Below are positions 2,009 to 63,028 of a DNA stretch of 64,000 bases, piece after piece. Source of the DNA: Dehalococcoidia bacterium (GTDB lineage Bacteria; Chloroflexota; Dehalococcoidia; Lucifugimonadales; GCA-2712585); the NCBI GenBank assembly GCA_965247585.1, contig CBDFHC010000004.1, positions 66,554 through 130,553 of the forward strand. Direction: 5' to 3'. The position numbers were made by a program, and so were the translations under genes. Within the stretch, counting starts at the first letter, position 1. Each line of letters starts with the position of its first letter. The notes below the pieces were generated by a model. It ran no database searches. It saw only the letters and a program-made list of their open reading frames with translations, and was not told where the DNA came from.

Positions 2009-2236
2009 TTCTGAGGGACACTTTCAGACTCCCGGCACATTCCTGTGCTGTAAGCAAGATGAACTATTTCGGTGCCGATCAGCGAGGGCGAAGCGTTAGC
2101 CGCTCCTAAGGGCTACAAATCTAAGGTTGGTGGTTCCCACCCATTCGCCCCGGAGGGTTTTTAGATGTTTCTCTGGGGGACACCCTCAGACTCCCGGCAG
2201 GGAATCCAGGTTCCCTGCACTCTCCTGTGTGGTTGG
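2009..2236 (+). repeat. Intergenic repeat cluster 1 (degenerate B, A, B)
   Basis: Module key (+ strand consensus). A: ..gcgatggg..gccacgacgaaggactgcaaatcacaggttggtggtgcccacccacccgcccaggaaggttttt. B: ttctgagggacaccctcagactcccggcag-[variable hairpin 2]-ctgcactcccc. C-left: gtgctctccc..cccagattcttcgatcctcacgggc.gactcagaatgacatgg. C-mid: gcggtatgggctcgtccttcgagagcctcaggatgagcgggttggaggcgtaggaggc. C-right: ttattttcataggaatgacatgacttgtgcggacgctcaacgcgggg. D: cccctcttaatctccccctatcgagggggagagaatttt. E: caaggtgctatcgcaccttatcgaccatccccctgaccctcttcc. E2: tgtccaggaagggggaagaaaaacgaa. F: cgagggaatcccgcatgccggttgcgaccggcaccaccagggacgaa. G: gtgaacaaattgagc..acagcgatagtgggcgc. This cluster: degenerate B 2009-2052, A 2064-2162, B 2168-2236. 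Confidence 0.9.
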
Positions 2237-2486
2237 TGCAAATTTTTGGCAGGGGTCCCCCTTTCAAAAGATGGGCAGTTCATTTTTGAGGCCCTGGCGG
2301 GCGCGATGGCCGAAGGCGAAGGGGTGGAAGGTAGGCGAAAGCGCCTGCGCAGTGATTGACGGTCTGGGAGGCTCTAATTACACTCCCCCCTTAACTGTTA
2401 GGCCGACGGGGCGGGCAACGGTTGACGGTGTTGTGCCGCCGTACTGGGATAGCCACGGATAACCGCGCCTGGGAAGGAAGCTGATC

Positions 2487-3557
2487 ATGAAGTTCGGGTT
2501 GATGTACGAGATCCAGATACCGGAACCCCACTACCCGGGGATAGAGCAGGACAGGTACAAGCAGGTACTGGCGCAGGTGGAGCTGGCGGACGAGGTGGGG
2601 TTCGACTACTTCTGGACGGTGGAGCACCACTTCCTGCGGGAGTTTTCGCATTGCTCGGCGCCGGAGGTGCTGTACGGGGCGGTGTCGCAGATAACGAAGC
2701 GGATCCGCATCGGCCACGCGGTGGCGCTGCTGCCGAGCCAGTACAACCATCCGGTGAGGGTGGCGGAGAGGGCGGCGGTGCTGGACATACTGTCGGACGG
2801 GCGGATGGACCTGGGTACGGGGCGGTCGACGACGCTGATAGAGATGGACGGTTTCGAGGTGAACCCGGAGGAGACGAGGGCACAATGGGAGGAGGCGGTG
2901 ACGATGATTCCGCGGATGTGGACGGAGGACCCGTTTTCGCACGAGGGGAAATATTTCAACGTGCCGCCGAGGTCTGTGATACCGAAGCCGGTGCAGAAGC
3001 CGCACCCGCCGATGTGGGTGGCGTGCAGTCAGCCGGACAGCTTCCGCGTGGCGGGGGAGATGGGGTTGGGGGTGCTGTGTTTCACGCTGGGGGGACACGA
3101 GCAGCTTAAGGAGCGGGTGGACATCTATCGGGAGGCGGTGAAGCACGCGCACCCGGTAGGGTCGTTTGTGAACGACCAGGTGGCGGCGCTGTGCGTTATC
3201 CACTGCGGGGAGGACGATGAGGATGCGCGGCGGACGGCGGGGCCGGAGGGGGCGTGGTTTGTAAATATGGCGGGCAAGCTGTACAAGCCGTGGCAGGGAA
3301 GGGATGTGCCGCAATCTTACAAGTTCGCGGTGGACGCGGTGCAGCAGGAACGGGTGGAGGCCACGGTGGAAGACCACCTGCGTTCCGGGGCGTTCGTGAT
3401 GGGGGACCCGGACACGGTGATTAAGGGGTTGAAGGGTTACCAGGAGGCGGGGATAGACCAGGTGCTGTGTTTCATGCAGATGGGGAACCTGGCCCATCAG
3501 CGGATTATGGACTCGATCAAGCTGTTCGGGCGGCACGTGATTCCGTACTTTCAGTAG
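2487..3557 (+). CDS. LLM-class (luciferase-like) flavin-dependent oxidoreductase
   Basis: 356 aa. The N-terminus MKFGLMYEIQ and the overall pattern are typical of luciferase-like monooxygenases. SD ggaagg precedes the ATG. Confidence 0.85.
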   Translation: MKFGLMYEIQIPEPHYPGIEQDRYKQVLAQVELADEVGFDYFWTVEHHFLREFSHCSAPEVLYGAVSQITKRIRIGHAVALLPSQYNHPVRVAERAAVLDILSDGRMDLGTGRSTTLIEMDGFEVNPEETRAQWEEAVTMIPRMWTEDPFSHEGKYFNVPPRSVIPKPVQKPHPPMWVACSQPDSFRVAGEMGLGVLCFTLGGHEQLKERVDIYREAVKHAHPVGSFVNDQVAALCVIHCGEDDEDARRTAGPEGAWFVNMAGKLYKPWQGRDVPQSYKFAVDAVQQERVEATVEDHLRSGAFVMGDPDTVIKGLKGYQEAGIDQVLCFMQMGNLAHQRIMDSIKLFGRHVIPYFQ

Positions 3558-3578
3558 AGGGAGCGTGCTGCATATCGA

Positions 3579-3835
3579 GTTCTGAAGGGCATCCTCAGAC
3601 TCCCAGCAGCACCAGCCTGGTCCTGTGCACCCCTCCTGTACGGTTGGCTACAAAGGGCGGGGTGGTTTTTGCCGGGGTAGTCTGCCACTGCGATGGGCGC
3701 CGCCATGACGTAGGAGTTGAAATCACAGGTTGGTGGTACCCACCGTCCCACCCAGTAAGGTTCATAAAGAATATTTTGAGGGACACCCTCAAACTCCCGG
3801 CAGGGAACCCAGGTTCCCTGCACCCTCCTGTGGGG
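3579..3835 (+). repeat. Intergenic repeat cluster 2 (B variant, A, B)
   Basis: B variant 3579-3647, A 3716-3762, B with the cagggaaccc/ggttccctg hairpin 3773-3835. Starts 22 nt after the stop of the preceding gene. Confidence 0.9.
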
Positions 3836-3919
3836 GGTGTGGTAGAGCCGGTTTGGGCAATTTTTGAATCCATGGTTTAGAATGTGCGAAAGCAACCAAG
3901 CGAATTAGAGGAGGGCCTT

Positions 3920-4850: not shown

Positions 4851-4883
4851 GGGAGGGGCGACTATCGCCCCTCCCTTTGTTTT
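4851..4883 (+). terminator. Intrinsic terminator after the dioxygenase gene
   Basis: gggaggggcga-cta-tcgcccctccc (11-bp perfect stem) followed by tttgtttt, 23 nt after the stop codon. Confidence 0.8.
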
Positions 4884-4893
4884 GGGGTGATTT

Positions 4894-5420
4894 GCCGTTG
4901 CTATGGGTGGTTGCTCCTAAGGGTTACAAATCGAGGGTTGGTGGTTCCCACCATCCCACCCAGGAAGGTTTTACAAAGTTTTACTGAGGTACACCCTCAG
5001 ACTCCCGGCAGAGGAGCACAGCCCCTCTGCACTCCCCCTTTCTGCGTGCGCTTCAAGAGACGATGTGTCTAGTTTCGAGGGAATCCCGCATGCCAGTTGC
5101 GACCGGCAGCACCAGGGAAGAAAACGCTAGGCTGGTGGTAGAAGTGGGCGCGAAGGTTGGATGTGCTCTCCCACCACACCCAGATTCTTCGATCCTCACG
5201 GGCCGACTCAGAATGACATGGCGGGGGGGCGGAATGCGGTATGGGCTCGTCCTTCGAGAGCCTCAGGATGAGCGGGTTGGAAGCGTAGGAGGCTTATTTT
5301 CATAGGAATGACATGACTTGTGCGGACGCTCAACATGCGATCAGGTGGCGCTGAAAATACTGACGGAGTAAAAAGTTCACAAACTCAGGAGGGGCTTTGG
5401 CTCTCTGCACTCCCTCTTTT
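4894..5420 (+). repeat. Intergenic repeat cluster 3 (A, B, F, C-left, C-mid, C-right, B hairpin-2 tail): one of the longest composites
   Basis: A 4894-4972; B 4979-5043; F 5073-5122; C-left 5143-5222; C-mid 5230-5294; C-right 5295-5345; B-tail about 5377-5412. The 10-mer gaatgacatg occurs at 5211-5220 and again at 5306-5315, bracketing C-mid. Confidence 0.9.
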
Positions 5421-8246: not shown

Positions 8247-8255
8247 GATATAGGT

Positions 8256-8376
8256 CCCTCATCCCCCTCGGTCCCCCTTCTCCGGAGTAGAAGGGGGAAG
8301 AAAAACGAAGTTCTGAGGGACACCCTCAGACTCCCGGCAGGGAACCCAGGTTCCCTGCACCCTCCTGTACGGTTGG
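8256..8376 (+). repeat. Intergenic repeat cluster 4 (E2-like, B)
   Basis: cccccttctccggagtagaagggggaagaaaaacgaa, then B 8310-8376 with hairpin 2 gcagggaaccc/ggttccctgc at 8337-8358. Confidence 0.9.
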
Positions 8377-9610: not shown

Positions 9611-9744
9611 TGGTTTCCTCCCAGGTTGGTGGGTGATTGGTTGGCTGGTTTGGCGCCGGCTGCCACCGGTAGCCTGGCTTCTGGTGACGGGGCGGGGTCT
9701 AGAGGAACGATACCAGAGGTTCAGTTGGGGGGCAATGAGGGAAG

Positions 9745-10013
9745 CCTGAGGGACACCCTCAGTCTCCCGGCAGAAGGGATCTGCCCCTCTGCACTCCCCG
9801 TTAACGGGTCTGCTTAATTGAACGGAAAAGGCTTTCTCGAGGGAATCAGCGGTGGCGCAGGGTGTTGTCACCACAAAGGGTTGCAAATCGAAGGTTGGTG
9901 GTGCCCACCCACTCGCCCGGATGGTTTTTAAAGTTGTTTCTGAGGAACACCCTCAGTCTCCCGGCAGAAGGGATCTGCCCCTCTGCACTCCCCGTTAGCG
10001 GGTCTGCTTAATG
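9745..10013 (+). repeat. Intergenic repeat cluster 5 (B, A, B)
   Basis: B 9745-9815, A 9848-9930, B 9937-10013. The two B copies share the same hairpin 2 (cagaagggatctgcccctctg) and nearly the same 3' tail (ttaacg vs ttagcg), consistent with a local duplication. Confidence 0.9.
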
Positions 10014-11212: not shown

Positions 11213-11297
11213 GGAGGGAAAGGTTTTCGAAGTTTTTCTGAGGGACACCCTCAGGCTCCCAGCAAAGGGGCATGACCCCTCTGCACTCCCCTTTCAT
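11213..11297 (+). repeat. Intergenic repeat cluster 6 (A 3' tail, B)
   Basis: ggagggaaaggttttcgaag, then B (tttttctgagggacaccctcaggctcccagcaaaggggcatgacccctctgcactcccc). Ends 8 nt before the aminotransferase stop codon. Confidence 0.85.
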
Positions 11298-12666: not shown

Positions 12667-12721
12667 TTTTTCTTCCTCTACGAAGGTTGGCAAACCTGTG
12701 CGTGGTTGGGATTGAATAGAC

Positions 12722-14098: not shown

Positions 14099-14164
14099 GG
14101 TGTTTGCTCCTCAGGTTGTTGGATGGACGCGACTTTGATTGCCATGTGATCTCCAAGGCAATCA

Positions 14165-14400
14165 GTGATAGCGATTGGTCTCGGCACCACGAAGGTCTCC
14201 AAATCACAGGTTGGTGGTGCCCAACCACCCGCCCAGTAAGGTCTTATTTTAAGTTCTGAGGGACACCCTCAGACTCCCGGCAGAAGGGCTCTGCCACTCT
14301 GCACTCCCCGTTTTGGGGCTTAGCAAGTTGATGAGTAGATGGAAAAGAGAGGCTGAGGGAACCCCCTCTTAATCTCTCCCTCGATAGGGGGAGATGATTT
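14165..14400 (+). repeat. Intergenic repeat cluster 7 (A, B, D)
   Basis: A 14165-14243, B 14251-14318 (hairpin 2 at 14280-14302), D hairpin 14362-14400. Confidence 0.9.
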
Positions 14401-14430
14401 GGCGAAAGGATTCGTATAGTCAAAGAGAGA

Positions 14431-16428: not shown

Positions 16429-16620
16429 GGTGGTCTCCCAATGCGAAAGAGATTGGCCGCCAAACTGTGGAGTGGATTCTAGCCACGGGGCGTAGCAGTG
16501 TCCATTGGTTGGGAAGTGGGGCTCGCATGTGCCGGTGGGCGAGGATGAGTTAGAATGGGCGAATTGACCCCTGCCGGAGGATTTCACGAAGTATGCAGGC
16601 ATTACGCTGGGTATCACCAT

Positions 16621-16876
16621 CACAAATGATCAAAGGTTGGTGGTGGGCTGCCGCCCCGAAACGGATTTGAAAAGGCAATTCTGAGGAAGGCCCGCGGAGC
16701 TTGTGAACAAATTAAGCCAGAACAGCGACAGTGGGCGCCATCGTAGGAGATGTTCTCCCCCCCCACCCAGATTCTTCGTTCCTCACGGGCGAACTCCGAA
16801 TGACATGGTGGGTGGCGGAATCCGGTATGGGCTCGTCCTTCGAGAGCCTCCGGATGAGCGGGTTGGAGGGGTAGAA
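16621..16876 (+). repeat. Intergenic repeat cluster 8 (A variant, truncated B, G, C-left, C-mid)
   Basis: Contains caaaggttggtggtgggc, attctgaggaagg, gtgaacaaattaagcc..acagcgacagtgggcgc, cccagattcttcgttcctcacgggcgaactccgaatgacatgg and ccggtatgggctcgtccttcgagagcctccggatgagcgggttggagg. Confidence 0.85.
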
Positions 16877-17016
16877 CGGTTAGGGTTGGCGGTGGCAGCG
16901 CGCTCCAGATTTACGTTGGTTCAACGGGCTGGGCATTGCCCCAGATGAGTGGTAACAAGAGCGCAGAAGGTCCATTTTCGAAGCAATCCGGCATAGTGGA
17001 GGGTACAGCCAGCCCA

Positions 17017-17135
17017 CAGGACTGCAAATTGCAGGTTGGTGGTACCCACCCAGGAAGGTTTTTAAAAGTTTTTCTGAGGGACATCCTCAGACTCCCGGCA
17101 GAGAGGGCTATCCCCCTCTGGACTCCCCGTAGAGG
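17017..17135 (+). repeat. Intergenic repeat cluster 9 (A, B)
   Basis: ggactgcaaattgcaggttggtggtacccacccaggaaggttttt, then B with hairpin 2 cagagagggctatccccctctgg. Confidence 0.9.
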
Positions 17136-17605: not shown

Positions 17606-17678
17606 GGTTGGATTTGAGGAAGCAGCAATGGCGATGGGTGTTTCGGCTGCGAGGAGTATGAAAATGGCAGGCGGTTCG

Positions 17679-17980
17679 CACCCCTCTTAATCTCCCTCTC
17701 GATAGGCGGAGAGAATCTTTCATTGTCGACGCAATCCCACATGCCGGTTACGACCGGCACCACCAGGGACGAACATTTCGGCTGGGAGATTCCACCTGTA
17801 CGGAGGAAGACCTATTTCGGTGCCGCTCAGCTAGGGCGAAAGGTTGCGTGCTCCTAAGGGCGACAAATCAGAGGTTGGTGATGCCCACTCACCCGCCCAG
17901 GAAGGTTTTTAAAATGTTTTTCTGAGGGACACCCTCAGACTCCCGCCAGAGAGGGTACGCCCTCTCTGGACTCTCCCCGA
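17679..17980 (+). repeat. Intergenic repeat cluster 10 (D, F, long A, B)
   Basis: D 17679-17722, F 17735-17775, A with 5' extension 17812-17908, B 17917-17980 with a perfect 10-bp hairpin 2 ccagagaggg-tacg-ccctctctgg (17946-17969). Confidence 0.9.
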
Positions 17981-19186: not shown

Positions 19187-19300
19187 CCCGTGGGAGGGTT
19201 TGGATTACGTGCCACGATAGCTTGGGTGGGCCGGCACAACACCTACCGGATATGTAATTGACGGGCCGATTCCCTTGTTAAGTCGAGCGCCCAGGGACTA

Positions 19301-19359
19301 CGCGGTATGGGCTCGTCTTTCGAGGGCCTCAGGATGAGCGGGTTGGAGGCGTAGGAGGC
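19301..19359 (+). repeat. Intergenic repeat cluster 11 (solo C-mid)
   Basis: cgcggtatgggctcgtctttcgagggcctcaggatgagcgggttggaggcgtaggaggc. Confidence 0.85.
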
Positions 19360-19447
19360 ATGGAGATCGCTACAAACAGCACTCTTATCCAACTTTCAGC
19401 CGCGAATCAATTGGTCGTGGGACACGATTATGGGCGTGAGCGGCCGC

Positions 19448-21346: not shown

Positions 21347-21483
21347 GGGGTCCCTCCTAGAGGCTGATGGTGGCGGTCGCATGGTGCGGTGTTGGTGCTG
21401 ATGACCGCCTTTAAAGGCTTTCCTAAGGTAGCGATGGCCCATACTGTTGTCAAACGGCGAGGCCGATGACGGGGGAATCAGAC

Positions 21484-21628
21484 ATGGCGATGGGTATCGC
21501 CACGACGAAGGACTGAAAATCGAAGGTTGGTGGTTCCCACCCACCCGCCCAGGAAGGTCTTATAAAGAAGTTTGAGGGACACCCTCAAACTCCCGGCAGA
21601 AGGGCTCAGCCCTTTTGCACTCCCCGTA
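21484..21628 (+). repeat. Intergenic repeat cluster 12 (A, B)
   Basis: A 21484-21560 (ggcgatgggtatcgccacgacgaaggactgaaaatcgaaggttggtggttcccaccc...). B 21569-21628 (hairpin 2 cagaagggctcagcccttttg). Confidence 0.9.
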
Positions 21629-21717
21629 ACACAGCTCATGACCGAATGTTTGGACTGGGACAGGTAGAGCTATCGGTAGCCAGTGAGACCCGGAGTGGCA
21701 GTTAGGTTGGAGCGGGT

Positions 21718-22900: not shown

Positions 22901-22962
22901 GATTTGAGGGACACCCTCAAACTCCCGGCAGGGAACCTAGGTTCCCTGCACTCTTCTGTAGG
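22901..22962 (+). repeat. Intergenic repeat cluster 13 (solo B)
   Basis: gatttgagggacaccctcaaactcccggcagggaacctaggttccctgcactcttctgtagg, starting 17 nt after the stop codon. Confidence 0.9.
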
Positions 22963-27075: not shown

Positions 27076-27223
27076 GTCGTCACCTCATGTGGACTAGACG
27101 GGCGATGGAATGGAGGGAGGGGCTGCGTGCGGCGGAGTATAGCACGGAAGGTCCGAGCTTCTCCCCAGCGCCTTTTTTAGAAAGGGGACCGGTGAGGGCG
27201 AGAGGTTTGTCTGCTGCTGAGGT

Positions 27224-27499
27224 CTGCCAATCAAGGGTTGGTGGCGCCCACCTGCTCCAACGGCTGGGACGAAGGCGGTATGTGCTGGTCCTTCCCCTCG
27301 ACAAGGTCAGGATAAGCTTGGCCTCAGGGTGAGCAGGCCGGAGGCGTAGGAGGCTTGTTTTCATAGGAATGACATTTCTTGTTCGGACGCTCAACGCGGG
27401 GCAATGTGACGCATAAAAGCGGGCGAAACCAAAAACTGACGGCCTCTCAGACTCCCGGCAGCCACCACTCAGGTTCCCCGCACCTTCTTGTTTGGTTGG
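27224..27499 (+). repeat. Intergenic repeat cluster 14 (A variant, C-mid variant, C-right, degenerate B)
   Basis: Contains ccaatcaagggttggtggcgcccacc, ggtatgtgctggtccttcccctcgacaaggtcaggataagcttggcctcagggtgagcaggccggaggcgtaggaggc, ttgttttcataggaatgacatttcttgttcggacgctcaacgcgggg and ctcagactcccggcagccaccactcaggttccccgcac. Confidence 0.85.
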
Positions 27500-28842: not shown

Positions 28843-28858
28843 GAGGTGTGGAGGTATT

Positions 28859-29305
28859 GCGCGGTATGGGCTCGTCCTTCCCTTCGACTAGCTCAGGATA
28901 AACTTGCCTCAGAACTTGTGAACCAATTGAGCTGGGACAGCGCTAGTGGGCGTCAGGATTGGACACGTAGAGAGGGTTGCGAATCACAGGTTGGTGGTGC
29001 CCACCCACGACCACCCAGTGAGGTTTAATTTCTGAGGGACACCCTCAGACTCCCGGCAGAAGGGCTGCGCCCCTCTGCACTCCTCCTAGTTGGGCGCAGA
29101 TAGACTAGAGACGGCGCTATTTACATTGGAATGACATGGCTTATGTGGAGGTTCAACGCGGGGAAATGAGACGCTGAAAAAGCCGACGAAGCCAAAAACT
29201 CACAGGGCCTCAGGATGAGCGGGTTGGTGGCGCAGAGGAGCGGGTATCGGACGGCGGTTCTCACGCCCTCTTAATCTCCCCCTATCGAGGGGGTGAGAAT
29301 TTTCG
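28859..29305 (+). repeat. Intergenic repeat cluster 15 (C-mid variant, G, A, B, C-right, C-mid fragment, D)
   Basis: Starts 17 nt after the stop codon. G 28917-28953, A 28975-29027, B 29028-29095, C-right-like 29110-29190, C-mid fragment 29205-29235, D hairpin 29262-29305. Confidence 0.9.
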
Positions 29306-29756: not shown

Positions 29757-29770
29757 TAAGGGTAAGAATA

Positions 29771-29835
29771 GTTTCTGAGGGACTCCCTCAGCCTCCCGGC
29801 AGGGAACCCAGGTTCCCTGCACCCTCCTGTTTGGT
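29771..29835 (+). repeat. Intergenic repeat cluster 16 (solo B)
   Basis: gtttctgagggactccctcagcctcccggcagggaacccaggttccctgcaccctcctgtttgg, lying between convergent genes. Confidence 0.9.
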
Positions 29836-29861
29836 GGCGTAGGTTTTCGAAATGGGTGAAG

Positions 29862-31046: not shown

Positions 31047-31261
31047 CTGTTTTCCTCCTTGGGCGAATGGGGGGCGCGGCGCTCAGTATAGTCTACCGGT
31101 TCCCGTCTAGGAAGAATGGTGGCACCGAGGGGCCAGCCGGCACGGTGCTGCTTTGGATATAATTGGGGTCTATCTACAGGGGTATGAAGTCTGCCAAATA
31201 TGCCAGGCCCAGTGGCAGTCAGGTTTTGCGGTGGGTATGGGACGGGAGATTGACCCATTGC

Positions 31262-31408
31262 GAAGGGTATCGCAACCACAGGGGTCTCAAAATTGGAGGT
31301 TGGTGGTTCCCACCATCCCGCCCAGGAAGGTTTTTGAAATGTTTTTCTGAGGGACACCCTCAGACTCCCGGCAGCCACCACCCAGGTTCCCTGCACCTTC
31401 CTGTGTGG
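31262..31408 (+). repeat. Intergenic repeat cluster 17 (A, B)
   Basis: A 31262-31335. B 31343-31408 carrying the arm-less hairpin-2 variant gcagccaccacccaggttccctgc (31371-31394). Confidence 0.9.
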
Positions 31409-31454
31409 CGGGCAACAGAAGAAGAGTCGGTCCTATTTTCGAGAGGTTAAGACT

Positions 31455-33434: not shown

Positions 33435-33451
33435 ATATCAAGGTTGTGAAC

Positions 33452-34020
33452 GGTATCTCCACCACGACGCCCTTGAATTCACAGGTTGGTGGTTCCCGCC
33501 ATCCCGCCCCGGAAGGTTTATTTCTAAGGGACACCGTCAGACTCCCGCCAGAGAGATTGTGAATAAATTGACGTGGCACAAAGGTAGTGGGCGCAGGGGT
33601 TGGATGTGCTCTCCCGTCGCTACCAGATTCCTCAATCCTGACGCACGGACTCGGAATCCATCATGTTGGCCTCCAGCACCAGGGAGGATGACAAAAGAGT
33701 GGCGGCTATCATCCATGGTGACCGGTATAGCTACTACAAAGGATTGCAAATCACAGGCTGGTGGTTCCCACCGTCCCGCCCCGGAAGGTTTAAGAAACGA
33801 ATTTCTGAGGGACACCCTCAGACTCCCGCCAGAGGGGGATGGCCCCCTCTGGACTCCCCCTTAGTAGGCGCAGGTTGAGTAGGGACGGTGCTATGTTCAT
33901 AGGAATGACGTGTCTTGTGCGGACGTTCGGCGCCCGAACATGCAACGCTGGAAACATGGAAGAAGGCAAGAATTCACAAATTCAGAGGGAGTCTCGCCCT
34001 CTGCACTCCCCCGTTGGGGC
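33452..34020 (+). repeat. Intergenic repeat cluster 18 (A, truncated B, G, C-left variant, F-like, A, B, C-right, B hairpin-2 tail)
   Basis: About 570 bp made almost entirely of modules. Truncated B/G junction at 33541-33575 (actcccgccagagagattgtgaataaattgacg). Second B 33801-33870 has a perfect hairpin 2 ccagaggggg-atgg-ccccctctgg (33829-33852). Confidence 0.9.
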
Positions 34021-35168: not shown

Positions 35169-36143
35169 ATGGCGACGCTAGTCACAGGCGGAGGCGGATT
35201 TGTTGGGGCGAATATTGTAAAGGCGCTGGCCGAGAACGGGCACTCGGTGCTGTCGGTGGACATCGAACCGGCGGGGGAGTTGGTGCGGACATATTTGGCG
35301 CCGTGGCGGGAGCGGGTCAGGTGGAAGCAGGAAGATGTTATGTCGCTGGACTTCTTGGAAAGCGTGGCCAAGGGGCAGTCCGTAGAGAAGATTGTGCACG
35401 CGGCAACTTACACCGTACACGACGACGCGCTGGAGAAGTCGGACAGCCGCCGCGTGGTGGAGACCAATATCATGGGTACGCTAAACGCGCTGGAGTTGGC
35501 GCGTCGGTTGAAGGTGAAGCGGTTCCTGTACGTGAGCACCGCCGGGGTGTACGAGGGAGTGAGGACAGAGAAAGAGTTTCTGAAGGAAGAGTTGCCGCTG
35601 GACTCCCGGGCGCTGTATCGGGCGACCAAGTACGCCGGGGAGCTGCTGACGCGGAGGTATGGGGAGCTGCACGGTTTCGAGACTGTGAGCGTCCGGTTTG
35701 GGAATTTGTATGGGCCGATGGAGAGGATGACGCCGTACCGGTCGTTGATGTCGGTGCCGTACCACTGGACGGGCAGCGTTGTGAGAGGCGAACCGATACG
35801 GGCACTGCCGGACCGGTATGGCTTCGACATGACCTACGTGCTGGACGTTGCTGAAGCGATTCGTTTGTTGCTGGACGCGCCGGTGCTGGAGCACCCGGTG
35901 TACAACGTTGCCGCGGGCCGGGTGTTACATCTGCGGGATATGGTGGAGGCGATACGCGAGGCGTTACCGGAGGTTAAGTTCCAGGAGCCGTTGCCGGAGG
36001 AGGAAGGGCAGTCGGTGTCCATTGCCAAGGCGTTGGACGGCAGCAGGATCAGGGACGAGCTGGGGTGGGAGCCCCGGTACGACGTTGTCGCCGGGCTGCG
36101 CGACTACCTGGAGTGGCGGCGGGGGTTTCCGGTGGGGCATTAG
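35169..36143 (+). CDS. NAD-dependent epimerase/dehydratase family protein (extended SDR)
   Basis: Starts MATLVTGGGGFVGANIV (GxxGxxG) and carries the catalytic YRATK. I moved the start to the ATG at 35169, 2 nt after the dinB stop; the track ORF starts at 35148. Confidence 0.85.
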   Translation: MATLVTGGGGFVGANIVKALAENGHSVLSVDIEPAGELVRTYLAPWRERVRWKQEDVMSLDFLESVAKGQSVEKIVHAATYTVHDDALEKSDSRRVVETNIMGTLNALELARRLKVKRFLYVSTAGVYEGVRTEKEFLKEELPLDSRALYRATKYAGELLTRRYGELHGFETVSVRFGNLYGPMERMTPYRSLMSVPYHWTGSVVRGEPIRALPDRYGFDMTYVLDVAEAIRLLLDAPVLEHPVYNVAAGRVLHLRDMVEAIREALPEVKFQEPLPEEEGQSVSIAKALDGSRIRDELGWEPRYDVVAGLRDYLEWRRGFPVGH

Positions 36144-36167
36144 GTGTGGGTCGCCACTATTTTAATG

Positions 36168-36510
36168 GATAACAAATCGCAGGTTGGCGCTTTCCACCAT
36201 CCCGCCCAGTAAGGTTGAAAAAACTAAGTTCTGAGGGACACCCTCAAACTCCCGCCAGAGAGTTTGTGAGTAAATTGAGCTGATACAGCGATAGTGGACG
36301 CTAAAGTTGGAGTTGCTTACCCTACCCAACCCAGATTCCTCGATCTTGACCCACGGACTCGGAATCGATCATGTTGGCGTCCAGCACCAAGGAGGGTGAA
36401 AAGAGAGTGGCGTGTGCAGCCCCTCTTAATCCCCCCCTCCATAGGGGGAGAGAATTTTGCTATTTTCATAGGATTGACGTGACTTGTTCGGCTCCTTGGA
36501 CAACGACGAC
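36168..36510 (+). repeat. Intergenic repeat cluster 19 (A, truncated B, G, C-left variant, F-like, D, C-right)
   Basis: Same module order and the same truncated-B/G junction (36248-36282, actcccgccagagagtttgtgagtaaattgagc) as cluster 18. Confidence 0.9.
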
Positions 36511-36567
36511 GGAGCGCCGAAACGGTTGGAGCAGGGCAAAGTTAACCGGCTAATAAGCGGGCAGACG

Positions 36568-39207: not shown

Positions 39208-39254
39208 GGGTTTATTGGGAGGGTCCTAACGGACCCTTTCGACCAATTCCTTCA

Positions 39255-39308
39255 AAATTCCGCCAAAGAGGGCTATGCCCTCTCCGGACTCTCCCGATTT
39301 GCTCAGAC
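39255..39308 (+). repeat. Intergenic repeat cluster 20 (degenerate B)
   Basis: ccgccaaagagggctatgccctctccggactctcccgatttgctcag. This is a hairpin-2 region related to the copy at 17097 and a tail related to 45531. It sits inside the operon, between the soxG-like and soxB-like genes. Confidence 0.7.
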
Positions 39309-40031: not shown

Positions 40032-40040
40032 TTGTTGGCT

Positions 40041-40467
40041 CGCGGTATGGGTTCGTCCTTCGAGGGCCTCAGGATGAGCGGGTTGAAGCGGCGGTTGGGG
40101 AATAGGATTGCTCCAGATAATCGAGCGGGAGAGGGCAGGCTGGAGTGGAATGAACGACACGGGATGCCGGGGTGGGACTTGCTCTCCCCCCACACCCAGA
40201 TTCTTCGAACCTCACGGACGGACTCAGAATGACATACAAACTGTCTGGAGCGTGGATATGGTGACGCGGGAAGGGTTAAGGGAGCCGTAGGGGATTTTAT
40301 CGAGGCAATCGGCCATGGCGATGGGGATAGCCACGACGAAGGACTGCAAATCACAGGTTGGTGGTGCCCACCCACCCGCCCAGGGAGGTTTCTAAAAGTT
40401 TTTCTGAGGGACACCCTCAGACTCCCGGCAGCCACCACCCAGGTCCCCTGCACCCTCCTGTGCGGCG
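40041..40467 (+). repeat. Intergenic repeat cluster 21 (C-mid, C-left, A, B) inside the operon
   Basis: C-mid 40041-40092, beginning 10 nt upstream of the soxG-like ATG. C-left 40175-40240, A 40313-40392, B 40399-40467 (arm-less hairpin-2 variant). Confidence 0.9.
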
Positions 40468-45136: not shown

Positions 45137-45545
45137 CAAGGTGCTCTCGCACCTTATCGACCATCCCCCTAACCCTCTTCCTGTCCAGGAAGGGGGAAGA
45201 AAAACGAATTCTCTGAGGGACACCCTCAGACTCCCGGCAGGGAACCCAGGTTCCCTGCACCCTTCTAGATTATCAACGGGGTCAAGTTACTTTAGAATTG
45301 TCGCACTCTTAATCCTAGGTTTCGGCAAGGTGCTATCGCACCTTATCGACCATCCCCCTGACCCTCTTCCCGGCAGGGAACCCCTCTCTTAATCCTAGGT
45401 TTCGGCAAGGTGCTATCGCACCTTATCGACCATCCCCCTGACCCTCTTCCTGTCCAGGAAGGGGGAAGAAAAACGAATTCTCTGAGGGACACCCTCAGAC
45501 TCCCAGCAGAAGGGCTCTGCCCCTCTGCACTCTCCGATTTGCTGC
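45137..45545 (+). repeat. Intergenic repeat cluster 22 (E, E2, B, tandem E x2, E2, B) inside the operon
   Basis: E copies at 45137-45181, 45327-45370 and 45407-45450. A near-perfect 80-bp tandem unit sits at 45306-45370 and 45386-45450. B 45208-45272 (cagggaaccc class) and B 45476-45545 (cagaagggc class). Confidence 0.9.
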
Positions 45546-46993: not shown

Positions 46994-47039
46994 GCGTCGA
47001 CGCCTCCGGGGAAGTGGTTGTCTAAGATGGAATAGGCCA

Positions 47040-48816: not shown

Positions 48817-49704
48817 ATGGAGAGAGATTTTGTAGGGTACGGCCCGAATCCGCCGCGGACGGAGTGGCCAGACGGAGCGCGGATAGCAATCTCGCTGGCG
48901 CTGGCGTACGAGGAGGGGTCCGAGTATTCGCTGCTGGACGGGGACCCGCACCGGGAGCCGACGGGGGAGGTGACTTCGCCGGTGGCAACGAGCGAACGGG
49001 ACCTGGTGAGCGAGTCGTTCTTCGAATATGGGAGCCGGGTAGGGGTGTGGAGGCTGTTGGACGTGCTGGAGGAGAACCAGGTGAAGGGGACGTGGTTCTG
49101 CACGGGGCTGGCGCTGGAGCGGAACCCGCAGGTGGGGAGGGAGATTGTACGGCGAGGCCACGATATTGTGGGACACGGGTACCGGTGGGTGGAGGTGTTC
49201 AAGATGGACCGGGACGCGGAGCGGGAGGACATGCGGAAGGCGGTGGAGGCGATTGAGCGAATTACCGGAGAGAGGCCGCTGGGGTGGCACAACCGGTACG
49301 CGCACAGCGTGAACACCCGGGAGCTGGTGGTGGAGGAGGGAGGGTTCCTGTACGACAGCAATGCGTATAACGACGACATACCCTATTTTGTGACGGTGTC
49401 CGGGAAGAAGTGGCTGATAGTGCCGTACTCGTTCGATACGAACGACGGCAAGACGTACCGGGGGTCGCTCGGGGTGGCGGAGTACTACAAATCGCTGGTG
49501 GATACGTTCGACCGGCTGTACGAAGAGGGGGCGACGCGGCCGAAGATGATGTCAGTGGGGATTCACCCAAGGGTGACAGGGCGGCCAGGGAAGGCAAAGG
49601 TACTGGGACAGTTCATCCAGTACGCGAAGAGCCACCCGAAGGTGTGGTTCGCGCGGAGGGGCGATATTGCCAAGTGGTGGTGGGCACAGTACGGGCAGGG
49701 CTAG
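48817..49704 (+). CDS. Polysaccharide-deacetylase-fold protein, PuuE-type allantoinase-like
   Basis: RDFVGYGPNPPRTEWPDGARIAISLALAYEEGSEYSLLDGD closely follows the PuuE N-terminal pattern. SD aaggaag. Confidence 0.65.
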   Translation: MERDFVGYGPNPPRTEWPDGARIAISLALAYEEGSEYSLLDGDPHREPTGEVTSPVATSERDLVSESFFEYGSRVGVWRLLDVLEENQVKGTWFCTGLALERNPQVGREIVRRGHDIVGHGYRWVEVFKMDRDAEREDMRKAVEAIERITGERPLGWHNRYAHSVNTRELVVEEGGFLYDSNAYNDDIPYFVTVSGKKWLIVPYSFDTNDGKTYRGSLGVAEYYKSLVDTFDRLYEEGATRPKMMSVGIHPRVTGRPGKAKVLGQFIQYAKSHPKVWFARRGDIAKWWWAQYGQG

Positions 49705-49848
49705 AGGGAATCGCCCACGGCTGTTGAGACCGGCGCCACCAGGGACGAAAAACCAGGGTTACATTTCACCACCTGCTCATCTGGACCGATGGAAAGCGGT
49801 ATGGGCTCGTCCTTCGAGAGCCTCAGGATGAACGGGTTGGATGTGTAG
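49702..49848 (+). repeat. Intergenic repeat cluster 23 (F, C-mid)
   Basis: F begins at the stop codon of the preceding gene (tagagggaatcgcccacggctgttgagaccggcgccaccagggacgaa). C-mid 49796-49848. Confidence 0.85.
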
Positions 49849-49916
49849 TCATGGTGAATTAGGACGGACTGGAAGCATATTTTCGGGAAAGTTCAAGGGA
49901 AGCGAGGGGTGAAAGC

Positions 49917-51581: not shown

Positions 51582-51604
51582 CATGAAGAGAATCACCCTT
51601 TCCG

Positions 51605-51752
51605 GCGGGTATGAGCACCGCAGAGGACTGCGAAGCACAGGTTGGTGTTTCCCACACACGACCACCCAGTGAGGTCGAATTTCTGAGGGACACCCTCAGA
51701 CTCCCGGCAGAAGGGCTGTGCCCCTCTGCACTCCCCCTAGTTGGGCGCAGAT
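51605..51752 (+). repeat. Intergenic repeat cluster 24 (A, B)
   Basis: Shares its subfamily with cluster 15 (cacgaccacccagtgaggt ... ctagttgggcgcagat). B hairpin 2 at 51707-51729. Confidence 0.9.
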
Positions 51753-52652: not shown

Positions 52653-52675
52653 GGACCAAGTATATCATCACCGGG

Positions 52676-52790
52676 GAATCAGCTATAGCGATGGGTAGTG
52701 TCACCACGAAGGGCTGAAATTCGAAGGTTGGTGGTGCCCGCTCCCCTTCGAGGGCCTTCGGATGAGCGGGCATGGAGGGCTGAAGGTTTT
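52676..52790 (+). repeat. Intergenic repeat cluster 25 (A fused to the C-mid 3' part)
   Basis: gaatcagctatagcgatgggtagtgtcaccacgaagggctgaaattcgaaggttggtggtgccc joined to gctccccttcgagggccttcggatgagcggg. Confidence 0.85.
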
Positions 52791-56143: not shown

Positions 56144-56259
56144 CCGCTCACCTCTCTTATTTTTGGTTGCCGAAGGGCGGGCCTTCGGCCGACCGGAGGG
56201 CAAACCTTAAACCCAGAGCGATACGGATGTCCAGGGTGGAGGGGGAGAAGAATTAGCAG

Positions 56260-56408
56260 CGGGGGATGGCGTTGCTACCACGAAGGACTGCGAATCACGG
56301 GATGGTGGTGCCCACCGTCCCACCCAGAAATGTTTTTAAAAGCGAATTTCTGAGGGACACCCTCAGACTTCCGGCAGGGAACCAGGGTTCCCTGCACCCT
56401 CCTGCAGG
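56260..56408 (+). repeat. Intergenic repeat cluster 26 (A, B)
   Basis: A 56260-56340 (ggggatggcgttgctaccacgaaggactgcgaatcacgggatggtggtgcccacc...). B 56346-56408. Confidence 0.9.
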
Positions 56409-56459
56409 GCGCGTTATCGGAACCCTAGGCTAGGGAGGTTTCGTACCCGACGGCGGAGG

Positions 56460-58364: not shown

Positions 58365-58383
58365 CATTGCCCATTAAAGCTAC

Positions 58384-58707
58384 GTGATCCGGACCTGTGG
58401 GCAACTTTGGCGCGGACAAGAAGTTCACCTGGCAGCGACTGGAGGGGAGGCTGGGGAGGTTGACGCGATTGTTGAACGTGGCGGCCTGCTGGACCTGGTT
58501 GAAATCAAGACTGGTAGTTTGGCCCATCTCCGCGGGGAACACCTCGAGCAGCAATTGAGTGTATTATCTGACTACGCAGAAGAGCACATTGACGAATTCA
58601 CCGGCCAGAAGATACTTGTGATACACGGGTACCTGAAGCCGACGGTGAAACCACACGTCAAAAAATACACGGCCGACACAGGTTTCGAGGTGGTATATCT
58701 TCCATGA
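58384..58707 (+). CDS. Orphan Rhs-associated C-terminal module with a PD-(D/E)xK nuclease-like core (possibly frameshifted)
   Basis: GEVDAIVERGGLLDLVEIKTG matches the D...(D/E)xK core of YraN/Hjc-like restriction-endonuclease-fold proteins. Nucleotides 58399-58446 are about 80% identical to the Rhs core tail at 59688-59735, but that tail is read in a different frame from this ORF. Confidence 0.45.
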   Translation: MIRTCGQLWRGQEVHLAATGGEAGEVDAIVERGGLLDLVEIKTGSLAHLRGEHLEQQLSVLSDYAEEHIDEFTGQKILVIHGYLKPTVKPHVKKYTADTGFEVVYLP

Positions 58708-59561: not shown

Positions 59562-59562
59562 T

Positions 59563-59826
59563 TTGGTGGCGACGCTGCGCTATTTCCATCAGGACCACTT
59601 GGAGAGTTCCAGCGTGGCGACGGACAGCACCGGAGCGTCGGTGGGGACGCAGACGTACAAGCCGTTTGGGGAGACTCGCACGTCCACGGGCAGCTTTGGC
59701 ACTGACAAGAAGTTCACGGGGCAACGGCTGGACGGCACGGGGCTCTACTTTTACAACGCTCGGTACTATGACGCAACGCTGGGCAGGTTTGTGGGGGATA
59801 GCCCCCGCCGATTCCCCGAAAAGTGA
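59563..59826 (+). pseudogene. Truncated Rhs/YD-repeat core C-terminal fragment
   Basis: RYFHQDHLESSSVATDSTG...TYKPFGE...KKFTGQRLDGTGLYFYNARYYDATLGRFVGDSP is the conserved end of the Rhs core (YYHxDHLGS ... GLYYYGARYYDPxLGRFxSxDP). It begins abruptly 1 nt after the preceding stop and ends at a stop that abuts a module-B hairpin. There is no N-terminal core and no toxin domain. Confidence 0.8.
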
Positions 59827-59866
59827 CGGCAGAGGGGCCAGCCCCTCTGCACTCCCCGGATTTTGG
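59827..59866 (+). repeat. Intergenic repeat cluster 27 (B hairpin-2 tail only)
   Basis: cggcagaggggccagcccctctgcactccccgg with a perfect 9-bp stem gcagagggg/cccctctgc (59829-59850). Directly abuts the stop of the Rhs fragment. Confidence 0.8.
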
Positions 59867-59994
59867 GGACGTATCAGAAACGGACGCTGCTTAGGCGTAG
59901 ACCGAGCCGGAGGGCGGGATTTATAGTAGGATATACGGTGCCTGGGCTTCGAGTGTCTCTCGGGCCGGGCGTTACTTATTAGAGAGGTGTTTTG

Positions 59995-62358: not shown

Positions 62359-62383
62359 GGGCGTTAGCTTAAGGAAACGCGAG

Positions 62384-62421
62384 GGCCCGGTCCGCTGAGG
62401 CGGGCCGGGCCTTTTGTTTTT
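62384..62421 (+). terminator. Intrinsic terminator after the molybdoenzyme gene
   Basis: ggcccggtccgc-tgag-gcgggccgggcc (12-bp stem including one G-U pair) followed by ttttgttttt, 26 nt after the stop. Confidence 0.85.
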
Positions 62422-62427
62422 GGAGGG

Positions 62428-63028
62428 GGTCTCTGGGGGGCACCCTCGGAATTACTGCAGGGGATCCAGGTTTTCTGCACCGTCCTGCGCGGTGGTAATT
62501 GTTTGTAAGGTGAGCCGCAAAGGGTTGCGAATCGAAGGTTGGTGGTTCCCACCGTCCCGCCCCGGAAGGTTATTATGAATTACTGAGGGACACCCTCAGA
62601 CTCCCGGCAGGGAACCTAGGTTCCCTGCACCCTCTTGTTTGACGGTTCTTCATAGACTGGTTGGGGCTATTGACGAAACGATCGTCCCCGGAGGGAGTGA
62701 GCGATGCCACGACGCGTGGAAATTCAGGATTGGAATCCCAAGCGGGCGCCGCGGTAGGACTTGCTCTCCCCCCGCACCCAGATTCTTCGATCCTCGCGGG
62801 CGGACTCGGAATGACATGGTGGGGTCGGAATGCGGTATGGGCTCGTCCTTCGAGGGCCTCAGGATGAGCGAGTTGGAGGCGTAGCAAGCTTATTTTCATA
62901 GGAATGACATGTCTTTTGCGAGCGTTGAACGCGGGCCAATGTGACGCTGAAAAGAACGAAGAAGTCAAAAACACAGGCTCTCAGGATGATCGGGAATGGG
63001 AGGCCGAAGGTAATTTTTCATAGCAAGG
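62428..63028 (+). repeat. Intergenic repeat cluster 28 (degenerate B, A, B, C-left, C-mid, C-right, C-mid fragment): long composite
   Basis: Degenerate B 62428-62493, A 62510-62572, B 62578-62645, C-left 62755-62820, C-mid 62829-62890, C-right 62891-62950. The 10-mer gaatgacatg at 62809-62818 and 62902-62911 brackets C-mid, as in cluster 3. Confidence 0.9.

Follow-up and report, generated by a model that had tools for sequence, protein, structure and literature searches.

Modular intergenic repeats of a single orientation follow the strand asymmetry of a marine SAR202 chromosome

All the repeat modules detected in a 64-kb stretch of chromosomal DNA from a marine SAR202 bacterium (hereafter, the window), which is part of a 1.12-Mb contig, read in the same direction, and the direction of these repeats follows the strand asymmetry of the chromosome. 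This polarity, together with the unusually strong strand bias, suggests a spread of the repeats that keeps pace with DNA replication. A strand-specific, replication-coupled spread is retained, tentatively, as their best explanation. A literature search turned up neither an account of such repeats nor one of strand skew in SAR202.

Results

Census and polarity of the repeats

Profile HMMs for nine module types were run with nhmmer on both strands of the window (E<=0.01). The + strand gives 90 matches, i.e., A 21, B 32, C 10, E 4, F 6, G 6, H 3, I 4 and M0 4. On the - strand, the only matches are self-matches of the stems of I and M0, which are palindromic, and no faint reverse copies are found in the window with these profiles at a relaxed E<1. 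A first, sequence-only reading had described the repeats as lying in one orientation. This observation is confirmed: the three cores that it quoted are present in 25, 18 and 7 copies when up to 3 mismatches are allowed; the + strand holds every one of these and the - strand none (0 to 0.06 expected from shuffles). The rescan of the window for comparable reverse-orientation copies finds 90 of 90 modules on the + strand and 0 reversed. The claim of more than 70 module instances is thus borne out, but that of 28 clusters has to be lowered to 27.

The 27 clusters (Table 1) are strictly intergenic and cover 6.1 kb, i.e., 9.5% of the window, with a density of about one cluster per 2.4 kb. The elements are 60-550 nt long. 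Since the order of modules recurs (A-B-H-F-C-G), the independent unit is the cluster and not the module; the location of 27 clusters out of 27 on the + strand has P = 1.5e-8. When the window is compared with itself by BLASTN, 586 HSPs are direct and 2 inverted, the latter stemming from two paralogous luciferase-like genes that lie on opposite strands. Modules chained head-to-tail, and tandem arrays, are seen in the window and in its relatives alike.

It must be noted that the orientation of the repeats is independent of transcription in the window, as first proposed. The clusters are flanked by -/- genes (8), +/+ genes (7), convergent genes (6) or divergent genes (6), and the right-hand neighbour of module B lies on the opposite strand in 13 cases and on the same strand in 13. 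The presence of genes on both strands is supported by codon-position GC and by Pfam; the coding lengths first given (about 24 kb on the + strand and 33 kb on the - strand) become about 18 kb and 30 kb, respectively, with the present gene list.

Strand asymmetry and distribution among relatives

Genes of the + strand have a GC skew of +0.44 at third codon positions, and those of the - strand one of −0.51 (coding strand), thus one DNA strand, i.e., the + strand, is G-rich at synonymous sites whatever the direction of transcription. The 90 modules of the window are all on this G-rich strand. GC skew is used here as a proxy for replication direction, which the strand asymmetry probably marks. Among 12 independent related marine contigs, module orientation agrees with the sign of the GC3 skew in 11 (P = 0.003), and every contig is internally uniform. 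The exception is contig L049, where A-B lies on the strand opposite to the G3-rich one. In other Dehalococcoidia MAGs, skew was rejected as a replication proxy: it is uninformative there because it is weak and confounded with coding-strand bias.

The net GC skew of the modules is about 0, and that of module B is −0.17, i.e., opposite to the genomic trend. The modules run counter to the genomic skew, therefore passive compositional survival cannot explain their orientation.

The operons recur in the syntenic relatives L060 and L061, where spacers measure 12-220 nt, modules are absent and the skew is weak; the repeats are thus a lineage-specific invasion that co-occurs with skew. The GlnA operon lies on the C-rich strand in the window and on the G-rich one in the SAG relative. 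The window copies are short, non-coding, multi-copy and missing from the orthologous sites of relatives, as MITEs are.

Structure of the modules

Module B is the most conserved part of the repeats, its core being conserved base for base across many species. It is made of two covarying stem-loops (hp1 and hp2), each followed by the invariant tag ACTCCC; on the other strand, GGGAGT is found 5' of the stem. Compensatory changes affect 7 of the 14 pairs of hp1 and hp2, and the reference copy folds with z = −3.5 on both strands. The mismatches of hp2 on the B strand are A.C (36) vs. G.T (11), therefore the complement of B is the strand that keeps its pairing. A hairpin with an invariant flanking tag is a substrate of the type recognised in folded, single-stranded form.

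In folding, modules A, F and G do not exceed shuffles; covariation is absent from module A, and no hairpin is supported at the left end of the A-B unit. The expression «hairpin-based», first applied to the whole family, is thus limited to B, M0 and I. The - strand of module A reads GGGCGGGTGGGTGGG, which by its letters is a predicted strand-specific G-quadruplex-type motif. A coding origin of module A was rejected: it lacks a consistent frame, and where long ORFs cover it, their start codons are artefactual, the Pfam domains starting about 90 residues in. Terminators were rejected as well, since no T-runs follow the stems on either strand and terminator-like sites are near the shuffle expectation.

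A direct repeat of about 12 nt, CTATTTTCGAGG, recurs at both ends of the units, and the T-rich left flanks (..ATTT) are part of it. No clean target site or element boundary is definable for the units of the window.

Table 1. Repeat clusters of the window and reference copies of modules B and A. Cluster coordinates are those of nhmmer matches; all 27 clusters are on the + strand.
Feature	Position	Strand	Modules and context
Cluster 1	2005..2232	+	partial B, A, B; between thiG leader (- strand, TPP riboswitch) and + gene
Cluster 2	3578..3837	+	B, A, B; flanked by + and + genes
Cluster 3	4883..5420	+	full chain A-B-H-F-C-G-hp2, 538 nt
Cluster 4	8254..8372	+	M0-B; degenerate homologue of the TIR MITE of other Dehalococcoidia
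Cluster 5	9744..10001	+	B, A, B; orthologous site of L051 also holds an A-B unit
Cluster 6	11231..11296	+	solo B; tail abuts stop codon of - gene 11305-12693
Cluster 7	14153..14401	+	A, B, I
Cluster 8	16596..17135	+	partial A, E, F, C, A, B
Cluster 9	17620..17980	+	partial A, I, H, A, B
Cluster 10	19295..19361	+	solo C
Cluster 11	21468..21629	+	A, B
Cluster 12	22901..22962	+	solo B
Cluster 13	27187..27495	+	A, C, G, partial B
Cluster 14	28856..29303	+	C, E, A, B, G, C, I
Cluster 15	29768..29836	+	solo B; convergent genes on either side
Cluster 16	31242..31409	+	A, B; B variant with CCACCACC in place of hp2 5' arm
Cluster 17	33442..34018	+	A, B, E, F, A, B, G, hp2
Cluster 18	36122..36552	+	A, B, E, F, I, G
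Cluster 19	39250..39301	+	solitary hp2 unit: stem-loop then ACTCTCC
Cluster 20	40033..40466	+	C, F, A, B; within - strand operon; spacer of 32 nt in L061
Cluster 21	45151..45542	+	M0-B, M0, M0-B; within glutamate synthase to GlnA operon; spacer of 28 nt in L061, one canonical TIR MITE in L062
Cluster 22	49703..49853	+	H, C
Cluster 23	51587..51745	+	A, B
Cluster 24	52673..52777	+	A, C
Cluster 25	56250..56409	+	A, B
Cluster 26	59827..59864	+	solitary hp2 unit right after RHS-like gene fragment
Cluster 27	62430..62983	+	B, A, B, F, C, G
Module B, reference copy	14250..14318	+	hp1 CTGAGGG-ACA-CCCTCAG, tag ACTCCCG, hp2 GCAGAAGGGC...GCCACTCTGC, tag ACTCCCC, small third stem CCCC-GTTTT-GGGG
Module A, reference copy	40298..40400	+	conserved core AAGGACTGCAAATCACAGGTTGGTGGTGCCCACCCACCCGCCCAGGGAGGTTT; no supported structure past a 5-bp stem

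Homologues of modules B and M0 in other Dehalococcoidia

In sequence, modules B and M0 are homologous to the inner part of a MITE of about 145 bp, found in many Dehalococcoidia MAGs and in the related loci L062 and L063. In these relatives, the MITE is bounded by TIRs (CAGGNTGCTGAAAAAC ... GTTTTTCAGCANCCTG) and by 4-bp YTAR target duplications, i.e., CTAG/CTAG, TTAG/TTAG, CTAA/CTAA and two imperfect pairs. From this homology, module B evidently descends from the core of a TIR/TSD MITE widespread in Dehalococcoidia. The TIRs and target duplications make the homologues of B DDE-type and not IS200/IS605-type elements; a 4-bp YTAR duplication is known for IS5-group elements. No autonomous partner was found, i.e., no related locus has a pair of TIRs 0.7-4 kb apart, and the IS630-like element of L062 was rejected as a partner, its ends being unrelated. 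The B core is absent from viral contigs.

In the window copies, no TIRs are found (the sole 16-mer with <=3 mismatches sits inside a gene) and no target-site duplications are seen. It may be added that cut-and-paste with identical ends could not sense orientation, and that the ancestral symmetric TIRs are absent from the window. In comparison with TIR MITEs (YTAR, DDE) and other bacterial MITEs, e.g., Correia elements, the window repeats share the homology of B and M0 to the MITE interior, but they lack TIRs and duplications, contain extra modules and are one-way, whereas symmetric-ended MITEs insert either way.

A contact of the transposase with the sliding clamp has been suggested in the case of Tn7 and of several IS families. 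The window repeats could still be DDE-type MITEs, the orientation of which would be fixed by a contact of this kind between transposase and replisome, in a very asymmetric replisome. The TIRs CAGGNTGCTGAAAAAC and matching YTAR duplications of the relatives argue for it, as does the replication-oriented bias reported for several DDE families, mainly in Firmicutes, which are also strongly skewed (PMC3971601). Nevertheless, this explanation is highly improbable, considering that TIRs and duplications are not recognisable in the window copies, that identical ends give the transpososome no orientation cue, and that the biases reported for DDE families are statistical and not of 90 out of 90.

In other Dehalococcoidia, the orientation of the MITE follows the neighbouring gene in 45 cases out of 52, the complement of B being sense right after stop codons. 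This REP-like location, and the covariation of hp1 and hp2, which fits RNA equally well, are consistent with an RNA route, i.e., RNA elements that would stabilise 3' ends, terminate transcription or act as small RNAs, or reverse-transcribed copies integrated with a strand bias at forks. Group II introns are known to retrotranspose with a lagging-strand bias. Very little probability is given to such a route: the TPP riboswitch is the sole Rfam match of the window, at the gathering threshold and at E<=1, so that the repeats match no family; no U-tract follows the stems on either strand; and no reverse transcriptase was seen. Moreover, no single RNA-level role fits, because in the window one and the same strand would be read in sense with + genes but in antisense with - genes.

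Selection as the source of orientation

Orientation could also be set by selection and not by insertion: the repeats would serve or disturb a replication-polar process and reverse copies would be purged. This may concern, e.g., structures that only one of the template strands tolerates, or a polar signal for protein binding or architecture. Several results argue for it: (i) the core of B is conserved at base level across species; (ii) at the orthologous site of L051, the A-B unit is about 88% conserved next to a gene 83% identical, within a spacer that is unalignable, which points, on this alignment, to constraint or homogenisation and not to neutral junk; (iii) the core of A is conserved without a supported structure, like a protein-binding site, and its - strand has the putative G-quadruplex-type motif; (iv) the bias of 45 out of 52 in the orientation of the MITE relative to the neighbouring gene must come from selection because the ends of the MITE are symmetric. 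On the contrary, decayed reverse remnants are absent even at E<1, and close syntenic relatives do without any copy. Hairpin toxicity alone cannot pick an orientation, since perfect palindromes are strand-symmetric. Selection is thus considered unlikely, though with an appreciable probability.

KOPS and Chi are 8-mers distributed through genes and spacers with a weak statistical bias. The repeats resemble them by an orientation skewed with replication direction, but they are elements of 60-550 nt, exclusively intergenic, absent from close relatives and of exceptionless polarity. These differences weigh against selection for such a signal, and the KOPS/Chi-like role evoked in the sequence-only reading is unlikely, given the length and the strictly intergenic location of the elements.

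Search for a mobilising enzyme

The related loci considered in this search amount to about 0.45 Mb; tBLASTN covered the window and loci L001-L059 (about 0.37 Mb), with an IS200 TnpA and an E. coli RAYT sequence as queries. No Y1/RAYT-like gene was found with these queries in that set. Pfam detects no HUH, Y1, RAYT, TnpB or other transposase among the ORFs of the window, in agreement with what had been read from the sequence. The ORFs located beside B arrays in L001, L015 and L021 encode no transposases by Pfam, only housekeeping genes. The relatives L061-L063 carry unrelated DDE transposases.

The repeats might be ordinary elements derived from IS200/IS605 (PATEs) or REP/RAYT elements, a Y1 enzyme encoded elsewhere in the genome inserting them as ssDNA into the lagging-strand template. 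With IS200/IS605 and PATEs (Y1 HUH, ssDNA), they share a strict, replication-locked orientation (here by the skew proxy, i.e., the tie to strand asymmetry), a stem-loop with an adjacent short sequence as putative recognition site, the lack of inverted terminal repeats in the window copies and head-to-tail arrangements. In addition, the ratio of A.C to G.T mismatches in hp2 indicates pairing kept on the complement of B. They differ by the lack of a Y1 or TnpB gene in the sequences searched, by the hairpin-free left end of the A-B unit, by the TIRs and 4-bp duplications of the B homologues elsewhere, and in that no defined target of 4-5 nt could be established for the window repeats.

REPs are stem-loops with a GTAG or CGTC tag at one end (PMC3733652). 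As in REP/BIME and RAYT systems (PMC3733652, PMC6006769), the present repeats have short tagged GC-rich stem-loops, very dense in spacers, with mosaic modules, which are located just 3' of stop codons in relatives. However, instead of a stem-loop of 20-40 bp with GTAG or CGTC, the tag is ACTCCC on the B strand (GGGAGT on the other); units are always direct, i.e., the inverted pairing of BIMEs and REPINs is represented by zero copies and inverted doublets are absent; polarity is strict chromosome-wide; and no RAYT was found in the set searched. Taken together, a PATE or REP/RAYT origin is improbable. The IS200/IS605 affiliation first suggested is not demonstrated, no Y1 being found in the window and related loci and the homologues of B having TIRs and duplications.

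Discussion

The interpretation given in the sequence-only reading is partly supported. Strict chromosome-wide polarity is not known for other modular mosaic repeats, namely the BOX elements found in Streptococcus pneumoniae and the BIMEs of enterobacteria. The window repeats are like them in combining a few short module types variably in spacers, and unlike them in being strictly polar and unrelated in sequence.

The clusters are non-coding, non-autonomous elements of the MITE/REP kind that entered the spacers between genes in a single SAR202 lineage, where the copies have lost recognisable TIRs, gained modules A, C and E-I, and become chained head-to-tail. Strand-specific, replication-coupled spread would proceed as follows. 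Their propagation would be coupled to the replication fork in a strand-specific manner: one strand, exposed as ssDNA, would be recognised through a stem-loop and its adjacent tag in the fashion of HUH enzymes, and new copies would land in a single orientation relative to fork movement. We infer that insertion, and not selection, sets the orientation; the mobilising enzyme, absent from the window, presumably acts on ssDNA. Replication-oriented insertion is established for IS200/IS605 and statistically detectable in several other IS families (PMC6006769, PMC3971601).

The following observations are counted against replication-coupled spread: (i) the TIRs and 4-bp YTAR duplication of the B homologues are the signature of a double-strand DDE transposon; (ii) modules A, F and G are unstructured; (iii) no enzyme was found in the sequences searched and no clean boundary in the window units; (iv) contig L049 is an exception, and a relative has kept the A-B unit at the orthologous position.

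A more specific proposal, possible but doubtful, is that this SAR202 clade combines an unusually strong replication-type asymmetry (GC3 skew of about 0.45-0.5) with repeats derived from a TIR MITE that switched to strictly strand-polar spread through a putative agent acting on ssDNA or at the fork. In the case of such a switch, skew and repeats would both reflect an unusual replication regime, e.g., one template remaining single-stranded for long. Possibly, in comparison with relatives, compositional polarity and gene orientation stand in an inverted relation.

If polarity results from the insertion mechanism, the repeats would be a natural case of a short non-coding family with fork-coupled spread, in which polarity is complete and not statistical; the driver would be worth finding, and HUH enzymes with their guide-like hairpins are of biotechnological interest. 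If polarity results from selection, they would point to REP-like repeats having a function that is polar with respect to replication, a question that has long been open. In both cases, an extreme skew and polar repeats present in one clade and not in its syntenic relatives form a tractable comparative system, and the repeats may be used as markers of replichore orientation in fragmentary SAR202 assemblies.

Polarity of the repeats in the window

All intergenic repeats of the window read in one orientation, as the sequence-only reading had claimed: with up to 3 mismatches allowed, the three cores it quoted occur in 25, 18 and 7 copies on the + strand and in none on the - strand, where the shuffle expectation is 0 to 0.06. 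The self-comparison of the window gives 586 direct and 2 inverted HSPs, and both inverted ones come from two luciferase-like monooxygenase paralogues, one on each strand. Profile HMMs were built for nine module types, i.e., A, B and C (names of the sequence-only reading), E, F, G, H and I (our labels) and the new M0. They give 90 matches on the + strand (E<=0.01); matches on the - strand are limited to self-matches of the palindromic stems in I and M0, and a search relaxed to E<1 brings up no weak reverse copy in the window.

These matches group into 27 clusters, which together occupy 6.1 kb (9.5% of the window). The modules recur in the same order (chains in the table), therefore clusters, and not modules, are the independent events; + orientation in 27/27 clusters corresponds to P = 1.5e-8.

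Coordinates of modules and neighbouring features in the window and in related loci
Feature	Sequence	Position (strand)	Remark
Chain A-B-H-F-C-G-hp2	window	4883-5420	
Similar chains	window	28856-29303; 33442-34018; 62430-62983	
Solitary hp2+tag unit	window	39250-39301	cluster 19
Solitary hp2+tag unit	window	59827-59864	cluster 26
B variant	window	27460-27483; 31375-31398; 40432-40455	hp2 stem lost
A core	window	40355-40385	G3 tracts on complement
thiG	window	992-1783 (-)	
TPP riboswitch	window	1836-1951 (-)	Rfam RF00059, 57.7 bits
GATase/glutamate-synthase/GlnA operon	window	43717-48679	C-rich strand
GATase/glutamate-synthase/GlnA operon	L060	6726-11182	G-rich strand
PIN toxin and Phd/YefM antitoxin	window	51904-52604 (-)	bordered by clusters 23 and 24
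Low-GC island	window	57800-59900	GC 0.54
RHS/YD-like core fragment	window	59563-59826	...FTGQRLDGTGLYFYNARYYDATLGRF...
A-B unit	L049	1395-1532 (-)	
Gene	L049	56-1240 (+)	coding GC3 skew +0.21
CCCTTCGRCAGGCTCAGGACAGGC unit	L062	5900-6050; 9780-9990; 11350-11447	
CCCTTCGRCAGGCTCAGGACAGGC unit	L063	2760-2960; 6480-6640	
Tandem B-unit array	L015	311-715 (-)	
Tandem B-unit array	L001	4768-5100 (+)	
Tandem B-unit arrays	L037, L045		
Receiver fragments	L015	5837-6853	MITE at ~6509
B copies	OY762261.2	136, 184, 752, 1264 kb (+); 680, 816-928 kb (-)	

Gene content and transcriptional context

About 41 genes were delimited by codon-position GC and Pfam, 17 on the + and 24 on the - strand, so the earlier statement that genes lie on both strands holds. 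The set is one of catabolic paralogues typical of SAR202, with five amidases, five DAO oxidoreductases, luciferase-like monooxygenases, sarcosine oxidase and a glutamate synthase/GlnA-type operon; it also includes a toxin-antitoxin pair (PIN/Phd) and a DinB-like polymerase. This gene set contains no transposase, in agreement with the sequence-only reading. Clusters lie between -/- genes (8), +/+ genes (7), convergent genes (6) and divergent genes (6), and the right-hand neighbour of B is on the opposite strand in 13 cases and on the same strand in 13; the orientation is thus not tied to transcription, as had been proposed. RNA-based roles or RNA-based spread of the modules are judged very improbable.

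Cluster 1 lies directly beyond a TPP riboswitch upstream of thiG, in a divergent spacer. The toxin-antitoxin pair is an insertion between two genes that sit side by side in L060, a SAR202 SAG relative. The low-GC island contains ORFs with no Pfam match, as well as an RHS/YD-like fragment directly followed by a solitary hp2 unit; it is probably an orphan toxin/immunity-type module.

Structure of the modules

Module B is composed of a first stem-loop, hp1 (CTGAGGG-ACA-CCCTCAG), the tag ACTCCCG, a second stem-loop, hp2, the tag ACTCCCC and a small third stem. The hp2 stem (9-10 bp) starts with GCAG and finishes with CTGC, with a variable interior. In a set of 42 distinct B copies, drawn from the window and from other genomes, 7/14 predicted pairs show compensatory double changes (e.g., GCAGAGGGGC/GCCCCTCTGC vs. 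GCAATCCCGAC/GTCGGGATCTGC, GCAGGGAACC/GGTTCCCTGC and CCAGAGAGGG/CCCTCTCTGG), and the folding z is -3.5 vs. shuffles on both strands. Mismatches of hp2 on the B strand are A.C (36) and G.T (11), a hint that the strand that must fold is the complement of B, i.e., the - strand of the window; this evidence is weak because the copies are not independent. The B variant carries CCACCACC in place of the 5' arm of hp2 and so reads GCAGCCACCACCCAGGTTCCCTGC; it looks like a recombinant between ...CCCAGG of A and ...CCCAGGTTCCC of hp2.

For A, F and G, folding does not exceed the shuffle level, and no covariation is found in A, which has a 45-nt sequence-conserved core reading GGGCGGGTGGGTGGG on the - strand. 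The description of the family as hairpin-based is thus valid for B, M0 and I and not for the family as a whole. The complement of A cores contains four G3 tracts with 1-nt loops, a G-quadruplex-type motif confined to the C-rich strand. A, H and G have a common 5' head (CTATTTTC..GG.AAT) that is also present 3' of the tail of B, so the units appear bounded by a direct repeat of ~12 nt.

Strand asymmetry

The GC skew of the window is ~+0.2 throughout. At third codon positions (GC3), + genes have G 0.59 and C 0.23 (skew +0.44) and - genes, on their coding strand, G 0.20 and C 0.61 (skew -0.51); at synonymous sites the + DNA strand is therefore G-rich in genes of either direction. Such a pattern characterises a replication-type mutational asymmetry, here a very strong one, and we count the skew that accompanies the repeats among the strongest strand asymmetries met. 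The net GC skew of the modules is +0.005 and that of B -0.17, i.e., against the genomic trend, therefore the modules are young or constrained, and their orientation as a by-product of composition is ruled out.

In L060, 13/15 genes mark the strand of the GlnA operon as G-rich, and this strand carries 65% of the coding, the pattern expected of a leading strand. The same conserved operon lies on the C-rich strand of the window, which holds 58% of the genes (24/41) and ~63% of the coding bases. Either this segment has moved to the other replication strand or the clade has an unusual compositional polarity; no claim is therefore made on the template strand carrying the B reading.

Scanning metagenomes with an A-specific pattern gave 14 short marine contigs. 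Module orientation is uniform inside each, and it follows the sign of GC3 skew in 11/12 contigs with a scorable gene (P = 0.003); several of their genes reach a GC3 skew of +/-0.46, like the window. In the genuine exception, L049, the A-B unit is opposite to the G3-rich strand. Orientation had been predicted to correlate with replication polarity; in this nearest test the prediction survives, the coupling being to the G-rich strand and not directly to replication. On long contigs of other Dehalococcoidia MAGs the orientation of B is regional (e.g., OY762261.2).

Insertion history

The GlnA-like protein places the lineage in SAR202, with SAR202 SAG AD-804-J14 as best named relative. L060 (GC 47%) and a second syntenic relative, L061 (GC 62%), have the operons of the window in conserved order, with spacers of 12-220 nt, a weak GC3 skew and none of the nine modules; their strand asymmetry is only ~0.03-0.08. 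The spacer between glutamate synthase and GlnA is 28 nt in L061 vs. 613 nt in the window, and that between sarcosine-oxidase alpha and GCV_T 32 nt vs. ~500 nt. This shows the repeats to be insertions specific to the lineage, some of them within operons. In the clade of the window, dense polar repeats and extreme skew occur together. An A-B unit 3' of a DAO gene is common to the window and the related contig L051 (nucleotide identity 83% for the gene and ~88% for the unit, the rest of the spacer being unalignable), therefore copies are old enough to be shared; those shared are either constrained or homogenised.

Homologues of module B in other Dehalococcoidia

Many Dehalococcoidia/Chloroflexota MAGs, belonging to different species, contain the exact 28-mer of B and lack A and C. 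In them, B forms the inner part of a classical MITE of ~140-150 bp: terminal inverted repeat (TIR) CAGGNTGCTGAAAAAC, CCTTCGACCATCCCCC, stem CCCCCTTCCTGGCCAGGAAGGGGG, hp1+tag, hp2+tag and TIR GTTTTTCAGCANCCTG. Its flanks are matching 4-bp YTAR (CTAG/CTAG, TTAG/TTAG and CTAA/CTAA, plus two imperfect pairs); TIRs with such flanks are the signature of a DDE transposon. A 4-bp YTAR duplication is typical of IS5-group elements; conceivably, the duplication could be a 2-bp TA instead. No autonomous copy is present in the loci searched, and an IS630-like element of the relative L062 was rejected as partner since its ends are unrelated.

MITE orientation in other genomes tracks the neighbouring gene. 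The tail of B lies directly against the stop codon (CTA when read on the B strand) of unrelated opposite-strand genes, and in 45/52 cases the gene to the right of B is on the opposite strand, vs. 58% for non-flanking genes (P = 1e-5); the difference from the window (13/26) is significant (Fisher P = 0.0009). The main rival explanation of the polarity, selection for or against one orientation, draws on this ancestral bias, which must be selective, and on the strong conservation of the elements; we consider it rather unlikely.

L062 and a further relative, L063 (GlnA identity 79-80%), are without strand skew and have a few canonical MITEs, one of which occupies the junction corresponding to cluster 21. 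The M0-B copies of the window are degenerate versions of this MITE, and no recognisable TIR is left in the window. In both relatives hp1 and hp2 of the MITE enclose a unit of ~24 nt, CCCTTCGRCAGGCTCAGGACAGGC, in places tandemly repeated; this unit resembles module C (..CCTTCGAGRGCCTCAGGATGAGCGGG..). Other Dehalococcoidia MAGs contain tandem head-to-tail arrays of B units with a period of ~126-140 nt. In L015, two adjacent response-regulator receiver fragments on either side of a B-containing MITE may be one gene split by the insertion.

Possible mode of spread

The repeats thus form a lineage-specific, dense, modular, non-coding family whose core is inherited from a TIR MITE. Its polarity is complete, tied to the G-rich strand and independent of transcription. 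The best reading, a tentative one, is that in this clade the elements spread in a strand-specific manner, coupled to the replication fork. A single-strand, HUH-type reaction would be favoured over a DDE one by: (i) the stem-loop substrate with its invariant adjacent tag; (ii) the loss of TIRs; (iii) the head-to-tail chaining of copies; (iv) a polarity that is complete and not statistical. A transpososome acting on identical ends cannot sense orientation. Clamp-directed DDE insertion is improbable, the orientation biases of DDE families being statistical (PMC3971601). For IS200/IS605, coupling of orientation to replication is established (PMC6006769 and references therein); that the repeats strictly belong to IS200/IS605-PATE or REP/RAYT is doubtful. 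Fork-coupled spread itself is kept at a tentative level because no mobilising enzyme was found in the sequence examined, no element boundary or target site could be defined, structure is lacking in A, F and G, and the ancestry is of DDE type.

The observation is confirmed, and the interpretation given by the sequence-only reading is supported in part. No description of these repeats or of such a skew was found in the literature searched. The repeats are MITE/REP-like in kind, so not categorically new; they are a distinct variant, TIR-less, modular and strictly strand-polar, descended from a double-strand MITE and found together with a very strong strand asymmetry.
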